A DNA stretch of 64,000 bases. Origin: Zoogloea sp. (GTDB taxonomy: Bacteria > Pseudomonadota > Gammaproteobacteria > Burkholderiales > Rhodocyclaceae). The notes under the pieces were generated by a model. It did not search any database, was not told where the DNA came from, and saw only the letters and a program-made list of their open reading frames with translations. A program made the position numbers and the translations under genes. Location: assembly GCF_041915215.1 (NCBI RefSeq), contig NZ_JAYSBV010000012.1; one strand, 5' to 3'. Positions 57,590 through 64,000 of the stretch are shown here, one piece after another. Position 1 is the first letter of the stretch. Every line of letters starts with the position of its first letter.

Positions 57590-58981
57590 TTGGCTCTCCA
57601 TCTCTGGAGAGCCCCCATGAAACATCACCTCGATTGGTCGTCCTATGAAACCGCCGGGCAGGGCGATGCCTATGCCGGCATCCCTGCCACTGGCGGCGAT
57701 TTTGCCCGGGCGGTGGCGGTCTGCATCAGCGACCGCCAGTGCCAGCGCAGCCCCAAGGGGGTCATGTGCCCCAGCTTTCGCGCCACCCAAGACCCGGTTC
57801 AATCGCCCGGCGGGCGGGTGGTGCTGCTCAAGGCCGCCCTGAACGGGGAGCTGGGGCTCACGCCCTTCACCCACCCCGAGCTCGCCGCCGCGATGGATCT
57901 GTGCGTGGGCTGCAAGGGCTGCAAGCGGGAATGCGCCAACCAGGTGGACATGGCCGCCCTCAAGATCGAATACCAAGCCCAGCGCAACGCCCTGAACGGC
58001 GTGCGCCTGCGGGATCGGCTGTTTGCCGCCATGCCCCGCCTGCTGGCCCGCCACCCGGGCAGCGTGCGCAACCTGATCAAGCTGCGGGATCGCGTCCCCG
58101 GAGCAGCCCAGCTGGCCGAGCGCCTGGTGGGGATTGCCGCCCAACGCCAACTCCCCCTGCCCGCCCCCCAGCCCTTTGTAGCGCCCGAGCCCCAGGGAGA
58201 AGGACGCACGGTGATCCTGTTTGTGGACACCTTTGCCCGCCATTTTTCCCCCAGCATCGCCGATGCAGCCTGCCAGGTGCTGACGCGGGGCGGCTATCGG
58301 GTGCAGGTGCTCGAACCCGCCCCGGATGATGCAGAAGCCGACCGCCCCCTGTGCTGCGGACGCACCTATCTTTCCCTGGGCCAGGTCGAGGCCGCCCGCC
58401 ACGAAGCCCAGCGCATGCAGCGAGCCCTGCGCCCGGCCCTGGCCAGTGGGCATCCCATCATCGGGCTGGAACCCTCCTGCATCCTCTCGCTGCGGGACGA
58501 TCACCTCAAGCTGGGGCTGGGCCCGGAAGCCGAAGCCCTGGCCCGCCAGGTTCATTTGCTTGAAGAATTCATCGCCCGGGAACACGACCGCAAGCAGCTC
58601 CAACTACCGCTTCAACCTCTGCCGGGCCCCCGGTTGCTGGTGCATGGCCACTGCCACCAGAAAGCCGTGGGGGCCATGAAATCCATGCGCAAGGTGCTAC
58701 GCCTGATCCCGGCTCTGGACTTCGAATTCATCGAAAGCAGCTGCTGCGGGATGGGGGGCAGCTTCGGGCTGGAGGCCGAGCACGCGGCCCTGGCCGATGC
58801 CATGGGCGAGCTGGCCCTGTTTCCGGCGATCAGGAACGCGCCCACTTCGCCTCTGCTCGCCAACGGCTTTTCCTGTCGTGGCCACTGTGAAGAAGCCACC
58901 GGGCGTCGGGGGCTGCATGTGGCCGAAATCCTGCTCCACAGCCTGGACGGCACCGCCCTCAGCCCGACCGAAGTGGCTTGA
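57590..58981 (+). CDS. (Fe-S)-binding protein with CCG cysteine-rich domains (GlcF/GlpC-like), stand-alone
   Basis: CVGCKGCKRECAN ferredoxin-like cluster motif and C-terminal CCG motifs (HGHCHQKA..., SSCCGMGGSF). No adjacent FAD-binding partner. Confidence 0.55.
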   Translation: MALHLWRAPMKHHLDWSSYETAGQGDAYAGIPATGGDFARAVAVCISDRQCQRSPKGVMCPSFRATQDPVQSPGGRVVLLKAALNGELGLTPFTHPELAAAMDLCVGCKGCKRECANQVDMAALKIEYQAQRNALNGVRLRDRLFAAMPRLLARHPGSVRNLIKLRDRVPGAAQLAERLVGIAAQRQLPLPAPQPFVAPEPQGEGRTVILFVDTFARHFSPSIADAACQVLTRGGYRVQVLEPAPDDAEADRPLCCGRTYLSLGQVEAARHEAQRMQRALRPALASGHPIIGLEPSCILSLRDDHLKLGLGPEAEALARQVHLLEEFIAREHDRKQLQLPLQPLPGPRLLVHGHCHQKAVGAMKSMRKVLRLIPALDFEFIESSCCGMGGSFGLEAEHAALADAMGELALFPAIRNAPTSPLLANGFSCRGHCEEATGRRGLHVAEILLHSLDGTALSPTEVA

Positions 58982-60659
58982 TCTGCCCGATCTGCTCAAA
59001 ACTCAAGCCAAAGCGGGCCAGATACTTGCGCAGGCGGTCTGCATCATTGGGCTGCTTGCGCCCCTGCCGGGATACCGCAAACAAGTGGCGCCCGGCCTCC
59101 GAGAGGCTGGATGCCCGGGCGCAGACCTCCACCACCGCCCGCAGCTGGACTTGATCGAACACATCCAGCGCCGCCCAGCCCCTTTCCCCCAGCAGCGCAA
59201 TCATGGGATCGACGGCGCCCCCATCGACATCGAGAACCTTCTCCCCTTCTCCGCAGGCTGCAGGGTGCCACGTGGCCTGGAGCCGCCCAATCTCTTCTTC
59301 CACCCCGGCCTCGGTGATCCGCCCGGCGTTCGCCAGGGTCGCCATGCGGGTAAGCGAGGCGCCCAGCTCCCGGAAGTTACCCCGCCAGCAGGCCTCCGGC
59401 CCGGTGGCAAACGCCAAGTAGCGGCGCCGGGCTTCGGCGTTAAAGCGCACCTGCTCGCCGTACTCCCGGGCATGGCGGGCCAGTTCAAAATCCAGATTCG
59501 GCTCGATGTCCTCACGCCGCCCGGCCAAACCCGGGAGTTGGAAAGTCCAGAGGTTGATGCGCGCAAACAGATCTTCCCGAAACAGCCCTTCACTCACCCG
59601 CTGCCGCAAATCCCGATGGGTGCCGGCGATCAGCTGAAAATCGCTCTCCACCTCCCGATCTGAACCAAAGGGGAAGAAACGTTTCTCCTCGATGGCCTTG
59701 AGCAACATGGCCTGCTCATCCAGCCCCAGTTCGCCGATTTCATCCAGAAAGAGCACGCCCCCATGGGCCGCCCGCAGCAGCCCGGCCCGCTCCCCAAGGG
59801 CCCCCGTAAAAGCCCCCTTCACATGGCCAAACAGGGTGGACATGGCGGCATCGCCCCGCAGGGTGGCGCAATTCACCTCCACAAAACGCCCTTCCAGGCG
59901 CTGATGCTGGGCCTTGAGCGTGTGGATGCGTCGGGCCAGAAAAGACTTGCCCGCGCCCGTCGGCCCCACCAACAGCATGGGCGCCCGGGAACGCCCTGCC
60001 ACCCGCTCAATCTGCTCGATCATCCGGTTAAAGGGCTCGTTTCGGGTCGCGATGCCCGCCTTCAGGAAGCTCAGGTTATCGGCCTGCTCCCGGGCAAAAC
60101 GCTGGGCGATCTGGTCGTAGCGCGACAAATCCAGGTCGATGATGGCATGCCCACCCACGGTTTTGGAGACCTCCTCCTGACGTGGCGGGAAAGTCTGGAT
60201 CAGACGCGCCGGCAGATAACGGGCCTCCGTCAGCAAAAACCAGCAGATCTGGGCCACATGGGTGCCGGTGGTGATGTGCACCAGATAATCCTCGGCCTCG
60301 GGCGCAAAGGAATAGGCCCGGGTGAAATCATGCAGCCGGGTGTAAACCTCTTCAAAATCCCAGGGGTCATGCAGATCCAGGGCATGGAGCACCACCTCCA
60401 CATGGGGTGCCAGCAGCGCAATATCCGCCCGCACCCGCGCCGCCAGCCCCAGGCTGGCCGGAGCATGGATCAAATCCAGTCGATCCACCGGCAAATCCGG
60501 CTGCAGGCAAAGCCCCACCGTAGGACGCCACTTGCCAAAGCGCCTCCCCTTGCGCCCCATGAAATCCAACTGGGTGCCCACAAAGCCGATAACCACCCGC
60601 TTCTTGCCCCCAGCCGGGATCAGCCGCCCATCCACGTCCATGTCCATGCTCACACTCAT
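58959..60659 (-). CDS. rtcR: sigma-54-dependent transcriptional regulator RtcR (CARF + AAA+ sigma-54 activator)
   Basis: Near-colinear match to E. coli RtcR (FGFVGT...KWRP, HNPWDFEEVY, IHITTGTHVAQICWFLL, GAFVEVNCATLRGD, FLDEIGELG, DADRLRKYLARFGL). Confidence 0.9.
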   Translation of the reverse strand: MSVSMDMDVDGRLIPAGGKKRVVIGFVGTQLDFMGRKGRRFGKWRPTVGLCLQPDLPVDRLDLIHAPASLGLAARVRADIALLAPHVEVVLHALDLHDPWDFEEVYTRLHDFTRAYSFAPEAEDYLVHITTGTHVAQICWFLLTEARYLPARLIQTFPPRQEEVSKTVGGHAIIDLDLSRYDQIAQRFAREQADNLSFLKAGIATRNEPFNRMIEQIERVAGRSRAPMLLVGPTGAGKSFLARRIHTLKAQHQRLEGRFVEVNCATLRGDAAMSTLFGHVKGAFTGALGERAGLLRAAHGGVLFLDEIGELGLDEQAMLLKAIEEKRFFPFGSDREVESDFQLIAGTHRDLRQRVSEGLFREDLFARINLWTFQLPGLAGRREDIEPNLDFELARHAREYGEQVRFNAEARRRYLAFATGPEACWRGNFRELGASLTRMATLANAGRITEAGVEEEIGRLQATWHPAACGEGEKVLDVDGGAVDPMIALLGERGWAALDVFDQVQLRAVVEVCARASSLSEAGRHLFAVSRQGRKQPNDADRLRKYLARFGLSFEQIGQIKPLRSG

Positions 60660-60859
60660 CGCTCGGTCTACGTCTATGCACGTTTGTGACTATCGCAGAC
60701 AGCTTAGCTAAATTTATAAACACTGCTCAAGTTTGTTATCTATTTGTATAAAAAACCCACTTTGCGCCAGCCTCAAAGCCTCCGCGTAGGCACCTATCAA
60801 AAAATAAAATCATTTAAAAACATACAGATAAAAACAAAACCAGGCCCAAGCAAGCATTC

Positions 60860-60875
60860 TGGCACGCTCTTCGCA
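60860..60875 (+). promoter_or_regulatory. candidate sigma-54 (-24/-12) promoter TGGCACGCTCTTCGCA
   Basis: GG and GC elements at consensus spacing (TGGCACG-N4-TTGCW, 14/16 match). Preceded by a 200-nt AT-rich region. Lies divergent to rtcR, where the RtcR-activated promoter is expected. Confidence 0.5.
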
Positions 60876-60887
60876 ATAGCATGCGGG

Positions 60888-61170
60888 ACGGTATCCAACC
60901 GCCAGCCTACGGACAGGGCTTTCCCGCCCGTCGGTACGCCACTGCCAGGGTCTCAAAGCTGAGTTGCAGGGGCGCATGCCGCACCGGTTGGAACCGCCAC
61001 GTCAGCACGCCCGTTGGGGGTGATCGGGTTCGATTCCCGACGTGCAGCTTGCAGCACTCTCGGTAGATCAGGCCTTACCGGCCTGAGCGGGTTCGACTCC
61101 CGCTTTAGCGCTGTGTCCCAGCGCCTTCAGTGCAGTACCCCACCGGTTGTGGCTAGACCTCGGTCTGCCC
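60888..61170 (+). ncRNA. candidate structured RNA / long leader with two tRNA-like T-arm modules (possible Y-RNA-like tRNA mimic)
   Basis: TCGGGTTCGATTCCCGA at 61024-61040 and GCGGGTTCGACTCCCGC at 61087-61103 (5-bp stems with 7-nt TTCGAYT loops). D-loop-like CTCGGTAGATCAG at 61058-61070. Hairpin AGGCC-TTACC-GGCCT at 61070-61084. No credible ORF; no canonical acceptor stem. Confidence 0.3.
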
Positions 61171-61344
61171 CCCGGGCTGAGCCGGTCTCCGCGTCTCCTC
61201 CGATGGCCGGATGCCCTCCGCCTATGCCGTGCCCACTCGGGCGGCCTGGGCCCAGAGCATCCACCCATCCGCGGCACGCCCCACCCGCCCAGCCCGGGCC
61301 CCACCGGCCAGCCCCAATTCGCCCTGTTCCTTTGGAGAACCCTG

Positions 61345-62490
61345 ATGTGGCAAAGCTTTCTAATCAAGAAAAATGAATACGCTATCCTGTTCCAGAGCGG
61401 AGACTTCAAGGCCATTCTGACGCCCGGCCATTATCGTTTCATCGATCCCTTACGGCGCCTGACCCTCCAGACTTGGCAAGCGGGCTGCCTGATGGATAAC
61501 GAAGACTGGATGGATTGGCTGCGCGAACATCACCCCGAAGAAGTCGCACGCCATTTCGATGATCTGAGCCTCGGCGAACACGAAGCCGGACTGCTCTACG
61601 TGGATGATCTGCTGGTTGAAATACTTCCCCCAGGCCAACGCGTGGCGTTCTGGAAAGGCTCCCGCCAACGCCGACTACTGTCTGTGGATCTGCGCGACCA
61701 ACTCAGCCTGCCCAGCGAGCTGGCACTCCAGCTCCAGCAACCCGCCCTGCGTCATCAAGCCCTCCGGGGGCAAAATTCAGTGCTCATGGCCCAGATCCCG
61801 GCTTACCACCAGGGCATTCTGAAAGTGGATGGGCAGGTGCAACGCTTGCTGCCACCTGGCATCGAATATTTCTGGCGCTTGCGTCACGAGGTACAGGTGG
61901 AACTGGTGGACACCCGATTGCAAAGCATGGAGGTCAGCGGCCAGGAAATCCTGACCCGAGACAAGGTAAACCTGCGGATTAACTTGGCCGCCAACTGGCA
62001 ATACACCGACGTGCTCCAAGCTCATGCAGCCCTCAGCCGACCGACAGACTTCATATATCGCGAACTCCAGTTCGGCCTGCGAGCAGCCGTGGGCACCCGC
62101 AGTCTGGATGAGCTGCTCGAAAACAAGCAGATCCTTGATGAGCTTATTAGTCAGCACATGGCTCGCCAACTGAACGGTCTGGGCCTGGTCGTGGGGAGCC
62201 TGGGGGTGAAAGACATCATTCTCCCCGGAGAAATGAAAACCATCCTGAGCCAGGTCGTGGAAGCTCAAAAAGCCGCCGAAGCCAATGTGGTACGACGCCG
62301 GGAAGAAACCGCCGCCACCCGGGCCCTGCTCAATACTGCCAAGGTGATGGAAGACAACCCCATCGCCCTGCGCTTGAAAGAACTCGAAACCCTGGAGCGG
62401 GTGGCCGAAAGAATCGACCGAATTTCAGTTTTCGGAGGACTGGATCAAGTGCTGAATGGTTTGATCCACATTCCCACCCGCCAAGGCTAA
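61345..62490 (+). CDS. SPFH/band-7 (slipin-like) domain protein
   Basis: Band-7 core (KVNLRINLAANWQY...ILPGEMKTILSQVVEAQKAAEANVVRRREETAA). RBS GGAGAA. Sits between the structured leader and rtcB. Confidence 0.75.
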   Translation: MWQSFLIKKNEYAILFQSGDFKAILTPGHYRFIDPLRRLTLQTWQAGCLMDNEDWMDWLREHHPEEVARHFDDLSLGEHEAGLLYVDDLLVEILPPGQRVAFWKGSRQRRLLSVDLRDQLSLPSELALQLQQPALRHQALRGQNSVLMAQIPAYHQGILKVDGQVQRLLPPGIEYFWRLRHEVQVELVDTRLQSMEVSGQEILTRDKVNLRINLAANWQYTDVLQAHAALSRPTDFIYRELQFGLRAAVGTRSLDELLENKQILDELISQHMARQLNGLGLVVGSLGVKDIILPGEMKTILSQVVEAQKAAEANVVRRREETAATRALLNTAKVMEDNPIALRLKELETLERVAERIDRISVFGGLDQVLNGLIHIPTRQG

Positions 62491-62533
62491 GCGCCAGGCC
62501 CATCCATAACAACAAGGAAAAAGGACAATACCC

Positions 62534-63751
62534 ATGGATCACGATTTGCTCCACGCCCCAGGCGCCCATCCCATCAAACTATGGACCCACGGCGTTCCGG
62601 TCGAGGAAGATGCCCGCAAGCAACTTATCAACACCGCCCGCATGCCTTTCATCTTCAAGCACCTGGCGGTGATGCCGGATGTGCATCTGGGAAAGGGATC
62701 AACCATCGGTAGCGTGATTCCCACCCAGGGCGCCATCATTCCGGCGGCGGTTGGCGTGGATATCGGCTGCGGCATGATGGCCGCCCGTACCAGCCTCAAG
62801 GCGGCTGATCTGCCAGACCATCTGTTCGGGCTACGCACCGCCATTGAGGCGGCTGTTCCCCACGGACGTACTGCCCAGCGCGGAATCCGCGACAAGGGCG
62901 CCTGGGGAGAAGCGCCCCATGAAGTGGATCAAATGTGGGCGCACTTAGAACCGGGCTTCAAGCGCATCACCGAGAAATATCCCCGGCTCGAAAAGACCAA
63001 CAACCACCTGCATCTGGGAACCCTGGGCACCGGGAACCATTTCATCGAGGTCTGCTTGGATGAAGGCGAAAACGTGTGGTTCATGCTGCACTCCGGCTCC
63101 CGGGGGGTGGGAAACGCCATCGGAACCCTATTCATCGAACTCGCCCAACAAGACATGCGTCAGCATATGGCCCAGCTACCGGACAAGGATCTGGCGTATT
63201 TCACCGAAGGTAGCCAGCACTTTGAAGATTACGTGGAGGCCGTCGGCTGGGCTCAGGATTACGCCCGCCGTAACCGGCAGGTGATGATGGCGCGCGTGGT
63301 GGCCGCCGCTCGCAGCATCATTGCCAAACCTTTCGATGCACAAGTGGAGGCCGTCAATTGCCACCACAACTACGTGCAGCAAGAAACCCACTTCGGCGCC
63401 CAGGTATTGGTCACCCGCAAAGGAGCCGTTTCAGCCCATAAAGGTGAACTGGGTATCATCCCCGGCTCCATGGGGGCTCGCAGCTACATCGTGCGGGGGC
63501 TGGGAAATGAGGAAAGTTTCTGCTCCTGCAGCCACGGTGCAGGCCGCGTGATGAGCCGCAACGAAGCACGCCGCCGCTTCAGCATCGCCGATCAGGAACA
63601 GGCCACCGCCCACGTGGAATGCCGCAAGGACAGCGAGGTGATCGACGAAATCCCGATGGCCTACAAAGACATCGACGCGGTCATGGCCGCCCAACGGAGC
63701 CTGGTGGAAGTCGTCCATACCCTGCGCCAGGTGATCTGCGTGAAGGGGTAA
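62534..63751 (+). CDS. rtcB: RNA-splicing ligase RtcB
   Basis: 405 aa with MPDVHLGKGSTIGSV, GVDIGCGM, NHFIE, HSGSRG and CNHN motifs of RtcB (3'-phosphate/5'-OH RNA ligase). Confidence 0.9.
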   Translation: MDHDLLHAPGAHPIKLWTHGVPVEEDARKQLINTARMPFIFKHLAVMPDVHLGKGSTIGSVIPTQGAIIPAAVGVDIGCGMMAARTSLKAADLPDHLFGLRTAIEAAVPHGRTAQRGIRDKGAWGEAPHEVDQMWAHLEPGFKRITEKYPRLEKTNNHLHLGTLGTGNHFIEVCLDEGENVWFMLHSGSRGVGNAIGTLFIELAQQDMRQHMAQLPDKDLAYFTEGSQHFEDYVEAVGWAQDYARRNRQVMMARVVAAARSIIAKPFDAQVEAVNCHHNYVQQETHFGAQVLVTRKGAVSAHKGELGIIPGSMGARSYIVRGLGNEESFCSCSHGAGRVMSRNEARRRFSIADQEQATAHVECRKDSEVIDEIPMAYKDIDAVMAAQRSLVEVVHTLRQVICVKG

Positions 63752-63880
63752 ACGCATAGAACCCACATAAAGCCGGCATCGAGCATCAGCTAAAAATCAG
63801 CTATTTTCAATGCCGGCTTTTTCGTACATCAGATTTTTGCACCGTAATCTAAACGCCAAATATCTAAACGCCCAACGCAA

Positions 63881-63912: not shown

Positions 63913-63921
63913 GCATGGGGT

Positions 63922-64000
63922 AGCCTGACGATGACCTACTTTCACGCACGCGTGTGCACTATCATCGGCGCGGTCTCGTTTCACGGTCCTGTTCGGGATG
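63922..64000 (-). rRNA. rrf: 5S rRNA, 3' portion (the gene continues beyond the window end)
   Basis: The reverse complement reads ...CCCGAACAGGACCGTGAAACGAGACCGCGCCGATGATAGTGCACACGCGTGCGTGAAAGTAGGTCATCGTCAGGCT. This matches the conserved proteobacterial 5S core (CCGAAC...GTGAAACG...GCCGATGGTAGTG...AGTAGG...CAGGC). Confidence 0.7.

Follow-up and report, generated by a model that had tools for sequence, protein, structure and literature searches.

Background

A tRNA-like non-coding RNA adjoining the genes for a band-7 protein and for the RNA ligase RtcB, known as b7a-tRNA, was predicted in 2016 by Burroughs and Aravind. As summarized by Wang et al. in 2018 (bioRxiv 10.1101/312249), this RNA resembles authentic tRNA and was not validated. 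In the same summary b7a-tRNA is a functional parallel of YrlA, and the two RNAs occasionally exchange protein partners. This report concerns a counterpart found in Zoogloea sp., in a stretch of 64,000 nucleotides of contig NZ_JAYSBV010000012.1 (hereafter the window). Here two T-arms mark tandem tRNA-like units in the leader of a band-7–rtcB operon, downstream of a sigma-54-type promoter that diverges from the regulatory gene rtcR. Because of the gene order, the promoter, the spacing of the T-arms, the covariation of the second unit, a covariance model match (E 5e-5) and the summary of Wang et al., the element is very probably an ortholog of the band-7-associated tRNA-like RNA. The window holds a reduced member of this class; that the class had been predicted in 2016 was missed by the first-pass annotation.

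RtcB operons are widespread. RtcR is activated in Salmonella by tRNA fragments with cyclic-phosphate ends, and YrlA fragments were not seen in this organism under inducing conditions (PMC7790460). The most frequent RtcB target in Escherichia coli is tmRNA, which has a tRNA-like domain (PMC9650030). In Pseudomonas aeruginosa, PA4581.1, annotated as tRNA-Arg4, lies between rtcR and the band-7-rtcB-rtcA cluster; it has no CCA and an atypical D-loop, and its RNA, measured by quantitative reverse transcription PCR (qRT-PCR), reaches about half of the level of canonical tRNA (PMC13637947). An SPFH protein, PA14_60630, is encoded inside the rtc locus of this species. Full-text literature searches for b7a-tRNA, or for band-7, RtcB and tRNA-like in combination, returned Wang et al. 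2018 only.

Two T-arms in the leader region

The T-arms TCGGG-TTCGATT-CCCGA (61024-61040) and GCGGG-TTCGACT-CCCGC (61087-61103) lie ~140 and ~200 nt downstream of the sigma-54 promoter, and read exactly as the first-pass annotation had described them. They are the only 2 sites, on both strands of the 64-kb window, in which a 5-bp Watson-Crick stem encloses a TTCRANN loop; 100 dinucleotide-preserving shuffles yielded a mean of 0.24 sites. The interval between the two T-arms contains GGTAGA (61062-61067) and the hairpin AGGCC-TTACC-GGCCT (61070-61084), which can be extended to a 7-bp stem (UCAGGCC/GGCCUGA). ARAGORN called 0 tRNA genes in the window, and no Rfam family matched it at the gathering threshold. 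At E<=10, in the interval 60600-61450, the best match within the Rfam tRNA clan was tRNA-Sec (20.1 bits versus a gathering score of 47). The one further match, a weak one to mascRNA (18.6 bits, far below the gathering score), spans 61003-61047. The census and the silence of the tools together indicate genuine, non-random motifs that tRNA callers do not recognize as genes, a point on which the first-pass annotation was right. Genuine tRNA genes were rejected because ARAGORN finds none, Rfam scores stay below gathering values, the anticodon-like loop measures 5 nt instead of 7, and the acceptor is short (5 bp in the unit 2 family, instead of 7).

Single-sequence folds could not decide the structure. 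The whole leader folds better than shuffled sequences (z -3.2), and the region hosting the two units (60990-61130) is not separable from them (z -1.4). Comparative data were used to define the units described below.

Conservation of the leader in related loci

Loci were gathered via alignment of band-7 homologues, and 80 of 529 confirmed matches, from Beta- and Gammaproteobacteria, were compared. The sample takes in Accumulibacter, Thiobacillus, Dechloromonas, Burkholderia, Ralstonia, Pseudomonas and Erwinia. Nearly all 80 loci share the same order, with rtcR divergent from a leader followed by band-7 and rtcB. The sequence GGCACG-N5-TCGCW is found 450-575 nt upstream of the band-7 ATG in 66/80 loci, and in ~70/80 the leader carries a pair of tRNA-like units at the corresponding position. 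In most loci the two T-arms are 68-83 nt apart, and lie roughly 280 and 350 nt upstream of band-7. Their stems exhibit compensatory variants (TCGGG/CCCGA, CCGGG/CCCGG, GCAGG/CCTGC, GTGGG/CCCAC).

Unit 2

In the relatives unit 2 is a near-canonical cloverleaf, TTGGA-TA-GCTC-A..GG.TA-GAGC-A-[5-bp stem, variable loop]-..GTC-GCGGG-TTCGA.T-CCCGC-TCCAA. In an alignment of 61 sequences, 97% of the cells are paired, versus 35-47% when the partners are slid. Compensatory changes mark 11/19 pairs, and none of 500 shuffles reached the observed covariation score. Covariation in orthologous loci, which the first-pass annotation had proposed as a check, is therefore strong in this family. The elbow residues of the D-loop and T-loop are invariant in the 61 loci.

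Relatives of unit 2 are called as tRNA by ARAGORN, which gives them conflicting identities (Met, Ile, Val, Thr, Arg, Asn, Lys) or 2-nt 'anticodons' that are impossible. The Rfam tRNA model matches them at 44-56 bits, over model positions 3-68. Their anticodon-like loop is hypervariable in size and sequence, being often a UUCG or GNRA tetraloop, and their 5-bp acceptor is not followed by CCA. On these sequence features, members of the unit 2 family are tRNA mimics rather than decoders.

The window copy is a reduced version. Its acceptor is weak, and may be drawn as TTGCA/TTTAG by homology, or as CUCGG/UUUAG in the model alignment. The D-arm is eroded (ACTC-TCGGTA-GATC, 2/4 pairs), the anticodon-like arm (61068-61086) has a 5-nt loop and is directly followed by the second T-arm, with no variable loop. 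The D-loop-like GGTAGA noticed by the first-pass annotation is indeed homologous to the family sequence: CTC-TCGGTAGA-TC in the window aligns with the invariant CTCA..GGTAGAGC, although only 2 of the 4 D-stem positions pair. A covariance model (R1) built from the 61 orthologous cloverleafs, with the window left out, matched the window at 61047-61113 (23.6 bits, E 5e-5); the alignment has deletions at the D-arm and variable-loop positions. The only other match in the 64 kb was T-arm 1 (E 0.025). Orthologs score 68-96 bits, most of them being training sequences. A 7-bp acceptor for unit 2, formed by CAGCACT (61053-59) and AGCGCTG (61107-13), was not adopted because it would destroy hairpin H3 (Table 1), conserved in relatives. 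Reduced copies similar to that of the window are found independently in two other loci (L023 and L041).

Unit 1

Unit 1 of the window is of the betaproteobacterial type and lacks an anticodon arm. An acceptor-like stem (6/7 pairs) is formed by CAGCACG (61003-61009) and CGTGCAG (61041-61047), and encloses a small hairpin (CCC-GTTGG-GGG, 61010-20), the linker TGA and T-arm 1. The first-pass annotation had found no acceptor stem closing either unit. This does not hold for unit 1; it does for unit 2, where only weak pairing (4/5) is present.

The same layout, in which a hairpin of 3-4 bp and a short linker lead from a 7-bp acceptor to the T-arm, was found in 40 betaproteobacterial-type loci. At least 6/7 acceptor positions are paired in 35/40 loci, compared to 34% with shuffled 3' strands. 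Acceptor sequences vary widely among the 40 loci, and the position of the stem is kept. In 12 of the 40 relatives N-CCA is found exactly after the unit 1 stem, immediately before unit 2, against a CCA background of 1.5% per position, which suggests a mature tRNA-like end. Unit 1 of the window has no CCA, the stem being followed by CTTG. In Pseudomonas unit 1 is a second full cloverleaf.

The sequence CAGCAC occurs twice in the window, in the 5' strand of the unit 1 acceptor (61002-61009) and at the start of unit 2 (61052-61059). As a consequence CGTGCAG (61041-47) and AGCGCTG (61107-13) have two possible partners each, and some of the alternative pairings are used in the minimum free energy fold. 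The repeat was not seen in the relatives examined.

Selective constraint

Variation was measured within this Zoogloea species, in a small sample: six metagenomic contigs, chosen because their band-7 protein is identical. Being ~99% identical, these contigs are of no use for covariation. None of the 361 sites in 60940-61300 is variable, 61153-61300 included. Variable sites number 4/80 in 60860-60939 and 2/44 in 61301-61344. There are 10 variable sites in band-7 (276 synonymous sites), and 15 in rtcB (280 synonymous sites; compared by alignment), 11 of which at third codon positions. At the synonymous rate of band-7, ~13 variable sites would be expected in 60940-61300 (Poisson P ~2e-6). The window copy, though reduced, is by this measure under purifying selection, and hence no relic.

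Organization of the locus

Features of the locus are listed in Table 1. RtcR is a sigma-54 enhancer-binding activator with an RtcR/CARF N-terminal domain, and its gene is divergent from the band-7/rtcB operon. An AT-rich spacer separates rtcR from the sigma-54 promoter, and transcription is predicted to start near 60886. The leader between the promoter and band-7 measures ~460 nt, and contains no credible gene. No sigma-70 promoter or intrinsic terminator was found in 60500-61500 by a simple promoter/terminator scan. The operon includes band-7 and rtcB only; gene and Pfam reading at the locus detected neither rtcA nor rsr in it. A terminator-like hairpin with a T-run, read from the sequence, follows rtcB (~63770-63825). 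The setting proposed by the first-pass annotation, tRNA mimicry in the leader of an rtcR-controlled RtcB operon, is correct: conserved mimics are carried on the transcript expected from a sigma-54 promoter divergent from rtcR.

Table 1. Features of the rtcR–band-7–rtcB locus. Positions are those of the window, unless preceded by the name of another locus.
Feature	Position	Strand	Evidence
rtcR	58959..60659	-	Pfam RtcR 5.5e-80, Sigma54_activat 6.3e-50
Sigma-54-type promoter TGGCACGctcttCGCA	60860..60875	+	-24 GG / -12 GC, read from sequence
Leader hairpin P1 (GAC-A-GGGC / GCCC-GTC)	60912..60932	+	RNAalifold, 38 leaders; compensatory changes
Leader hairpin P2	60933..60980	+	RNAalifold, 38 leaders
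tRNA-like unit 1, without anticodon arm	61003..61047	+	Comparative layout
tRNA-like unit 2, reduced	61049..61108	+	Family covariance model and homology
Hairpin H3 (GCGCTG-TGTCC-CAGCGC), directly 3' of unit 2	61108..61124	+	Relatives by eye; single-sequence fold
Motif GCAGTACCCCACCGG, then small hairpin CCAC-CGGTT-GTGG	61132..61152	+	Conserved in relatives
GC-rich 3' leader domain, ending in ribosome-binding site GGAGAA (61334-61339)	61153..61344	+	
Band-7/SPFH (slipin-family) gene, 381 aa	61345..62490	+	Pfam Band_7 3e-26
rtcB RNA ligase gene, last of operon	62534..63751	+	Pfam RtcB 2.5e-131
tmRNA-like spacer element	L020:4695-4905, L028:4655-4873, L012:4670-4890, L034:2770-2985		

Upstream of the units, hairpins P1 and P2 feature compensatory changes at 13/19 predicted pairs. 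In P2 a conserved GGTRCGC strand (GGTGCGC in the window) pairs with the conserved motif GCGYATGCC, in which ATGCCGC is nearly invariant. Downstream, counterparts of H3 with other stems (CTGTCC/GACAG, CTGCCC/GGCAG, AGCCC/GGCTT) were recognized by eye at the same place in relatives. The motif GCAGTACCCGCCGG (61132-46 in the window) is found in most loci, and the small hairpin which follows changes from CCGC/GCGG in relatives to CCAC/GTGG in the window. The length of the GC-rich 3' domain and GCCCGG-type motifs recur in relatives. Full-length leaders were analyzed by MAFFT and RNAalifold; the GC-rich 3' domain aligned poorly, and no structure is claimed for 61153-61344.

In relatives, at positions equivalent to 61132-61152 of the window, the GCGG located after ACCCGCCGG (CCCGCCGG...GCGG) may pair either with an upstream CCGC or, across a GCAA-capped hairpin, with a downstream CCCGC. 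These mutually exclusive helices could work as a switch.

The band-7 protein

The sequence of the band-7 protein matches that of a Zoogloea sp. protein at 100% identity. Its AlphaFold2 (AF2) model (mean predicted local distance difference test score, pLDDT, 79) features a pair of beta domains at the N-terminus, along with an SPFH domain and a long helix. Foldseek retrieved stomatin, HflK/C, prohibitin and erlin (E 3e-14 to 1e-9). The longest alignments were to the major vault protein (~420 columns, E 3e-10), and included the N-terminal domains. No obvious hydrophobic N-terminal segment was seen by eye in the sequence, with no transmembrane prediction run, and the protein is apparently soluble. 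As in the vault particle, a protein whose model covers the beta repeat domains, the SPFH shoulder and the long helix of the major vault protein is accompanied by a small structured RNA; the likeness is one of predicted monomer fold only. The predicted fold supports a cage or ring scaffold.

Similarity to known tRNA-like RNAs

The window element shares with b7a-tRNA the tRNA-like character and the position next to a band-7/SPFH gene and rtcB, and its unit 2 orthologs are strongly tRNA-like. Set against the second-hand description of b7a-tRNA, the window copy is reduced and missed by tRNA finders, and is made by two tandem units in a ~460-nt sigma-54 leader. The T-arms, the anticodon-like arm, the GG of the D-loop and one acceptor stem are retained in the window copy, which fails with both ARAGORN and Rfam. 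PA4581.1 similarly lies between rtcR and band-7 and lacks CCA, and the Pseudomonas unit 2 orthologs also give an ACG 'anticodon'. It differs in having a complete cloverleaf and a tRNA gene annotation, the window units not being callable as tRNA. Judged by the reported location and anticodon, and not by sequence, PA4581.1 probably belongs to the same RNA class.

YrlA (RF02553) is also a tRNA mimic of RtcR-controlled RtcB operons, is paired with a ring- or cage-forming scaffold, and is the proposed functional analogue of b7a-tRNA. The first-pass annotation had suggested a Y RNA of this type for the window, an assignment which has to be abandoned. The YrlA system is made by rsr-yrlBA-rtcBA operons working with Ro/Rsr; in the window there is no match to RF02553 (E<=10, 60600-61450), rsr is missing from the operon, and the partner, a band-7/SPFH protein, comes from a family other than Ro. 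No 5'/3' closing helix of the Ro-binding type emerged from the leader folds.

Unit 1 resembles the tRNA-like domain of tmRNA, because it combines acceptor, T-arm and a rudimentary D element with no anticodon arm. In contrast to that domain, unit 1 of the window has no CCA and no G3:U70, position 3 being engaged in a G61005-C61045 pair, and nothing suggests aminoacylation. Like mascRNA, which is cut from MALAT1 by RNase P, unit 1 forms part of a longer RNA, and RNase P could free it.

Interpretation

We read the T-arms as the cores of two tandem tRNA-like modules, the Zoogloea version of b7a-tRNA, residing in the RtcR/sigma-54 leader and having a processing-plus-cofactor role, and assign to this reading a probability of about 55%. 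The mechanism itself is offered tentatively. RtcR would switch the operon on, after which tRNA-processing enzymes would cut the leader: RNase P on the 5' flank of every acceptor/T-arm minihelix, and an exonuclease or endonuclease on the 3' flank. Cutting would free small, stable tRNA mimics, and these may join the vault-like band-7 protein and RtcB in trans as their RNA partner, in parallel to the pairing of YrlA with Ro in rsr-rtcB operons. Discrete processed RNAs are favoured by the acceptor/T-arm minihelices, by the N-CCA ends of relatives and by the near-tRNA abundance in P. aeruginosa.

Several points weigh against this interpretation. The window copy has no CCA, a weak unit 2 acceptor and an eroded D-stem, and may therefore be a poor RNase P substrate. 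In three Pseudomonas loci (L040:3036-3503, L046:3050-3503, L055:3050-3503) plain hairpins replace both units in a leader that still has its promoter, P1/P2, the 3' domain and the motifs ATGCCGCC and ACCCGCCGG. Erwinia has at most a T-arm-like remnant, a 15-nt match being present in L075 and none in L071. Judging from these sequences tRNA-likeness is hence dispensable in some lineages. The level of PA4581.1 is unchanged on induction of the Rtc proteins (PMC13637947), unlike what simple co-transcription would give. The equation with the b7a-tRNA of Burroughs and Aravind would go through a second-hand description, and the role assigned to the RNA with band-7 and RtcB in Zoogloea is extrapolated from analogous systems.

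The main rival is a purely cis-acting leader: a larger structured 5' UTR would control the stability or translation of the band-7-rtcB mRNA, the tRNA-like modules would serve in it as signals for processing or structure ('tRNA punctuation'), and the fragments set free would lack a function. In favour of this, conservation extends to the whole leader: compensatory changes support P1 and P2, 3' motifs and hairpins recur, and the full 60940-61300 is invariant in the Zoogloea population. The most persistent part is, moreover, the acceptor/T-arm minihelix, a minimal RNase P substrate, the anticodon and D arms having been lost repeatedly, and some lineages keep the leader with plain hairpins in place of the units. 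However, all 61 loci keep the same elbow nucleotides in unit 2, beyond the needs of a cleavage signal; N-CCA after unit 1 suggests a mature end in 12/40 loci, and the P. aeruginosa counterpart accumulates near tRNA levels without induction of the operon (PMC13637947). We regard a leader acting only in cis as rather unlikely. It is possible, though doubtful, that the units are exchangeable modules of a larger, previously undescribed structured RNA of ~450-560 nt made from the RtcR/sigma-54 promoter. Its frame would include P1, P2, the ATGCCGCC motif, two tRNA-like slots, H3, the GCAGUACCCGCCGG motif and the GC-rich 3' domain. Within this constant frame, the occupant of a slot could be any of four forms: a complete cloverleaf, a minihelix, a tRNA whose D-arm is eroded, or a plain hairpin. 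If so, this RNA may be an organizing scaffold or a regulator of a vault-like band-7/RtcB repair particle.

Alternatively the RNA could feed back on RtcR as a ligand of its CARF domain, or could serve tRNA-cleaving nucleases and RtcB as a decoy or substrate. RtcR of Salmonella does respond to cyclic-phosphate tRNA fragments (PMC7790460), tmRNA tops the RtcB targets in E. coli (PMC9650030), and the anatomy of unit 1 is similar to that of the tmRNA tRNA-like domain. Against this, a hypervariable anticodon-like loop, often UUCG or GNRA, is an unlikely target of anticodon nucleases, and YrlA fragments were not detected in induced Salmonella (PMC7790460); roles of this kind seem improbable. If the units were decaying tRNA genes, or a relic of chance or of an integration site that is now functionless, this would account for the lost D-stem and acceptor pairing of unit 2, for its 23.6 bits versus 68-96, and for the failure of tRNA detection tools on the window. 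Such an origin is made very improbable by the absence of variation at 361 sites, by a promoter-to-band-7 position fixed, with covariation, across two proteobacterial classes, and by the independent recurrence of similar reduced forms in L023 and L041. Hardly any weight is given to a YrlA-type Y RNA working with Ro/Rsr. A partial tRNA mimic beside rtcB, and the partner swaps between b7a-tRNA and YrlA (bioRxiv 10.1101/312249), would fit it; the silence of RF02553, the missing rsr and closing helix, and a partner of the band-7 type do not.

Since 2016 the band-7-associated tRNA-like RNA has existed only as a computational prediction. To this prediction the locus adds a tandem pair inside a long, conserved, sigma-54-driven leader, and a tRNA shape reducible to an acceptor/T-arm minihelix that is still under strong purifying selection. 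It further adds the N-CCA ends of relatives, pointing to tRNA-type processing, and a partner protein whose predicted fold resembles a soluble vault/SPFH cage former. Processing by RNase P, a ribonucleoprotein with band-7 and a parallel with Ro-YrlA are testable predictions. Reduced members of the class are missed by tRNA finders and Rfam, and fuller members risk annotation as ordinary tRNA genes.

Additional elements in rtc loci

A ~220-nt conserved non-coding element with tmRNA-like topology was found in the band-7 to rtcB spacer of four loci (Table 1). It features a 7-bp acceptor with compensatory changes (GGGCACG/CGTGTCC, GGGCGTG/CACGTCC, GGGCATG/CATGCCC), a T-arm (GCGGG-TTCGAGT-CCCGC) and an ACCA or GCCA 3' tail, and encloses a multi-helix insert of ~190 nt. 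Compensatory changes mark 15/55 predicted pairs, in only 4 sequences. The element gave no ARAGORN call and no Rfam gathering hit, the one match being a weak tmRNA 3'-end match (16.8 bits). Only its 3' part is kept in L002. The window does not contain it, the band-7 to rtcB spacer (62491-62533) measuring 43 nt.

An extra open reading frame of 120-160 aa resides between band-7 and rtcB in many loci (among them L001:4632-5116, L002:4629-5176, L004, L009, L013, L060, L070), and is absent from the window operon. It is rich in Cys and basic residues, and includes the motif SGKQRR...NSYG.P.F..RGYY.D..FRC.DCG....WTA..Q.WWYE....RC..CR. The product looks like a zinc ribbon.

At least 8 genuine tRNA genes (Rfam tRNA 48-64 bits) lie directly upstream of the band-7 leader in Roseateles sp. 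NT4 (L079:1198-2368), a locus in which no rtcR was detected. At the end of the window, 63920-64000 on the minus strand resembles part of a 5S rRNA gene truncated by the window edge, on which Rfam is silent; if this is 5S rRNA, the rtc operon would abut a ribosomal RNA operon.

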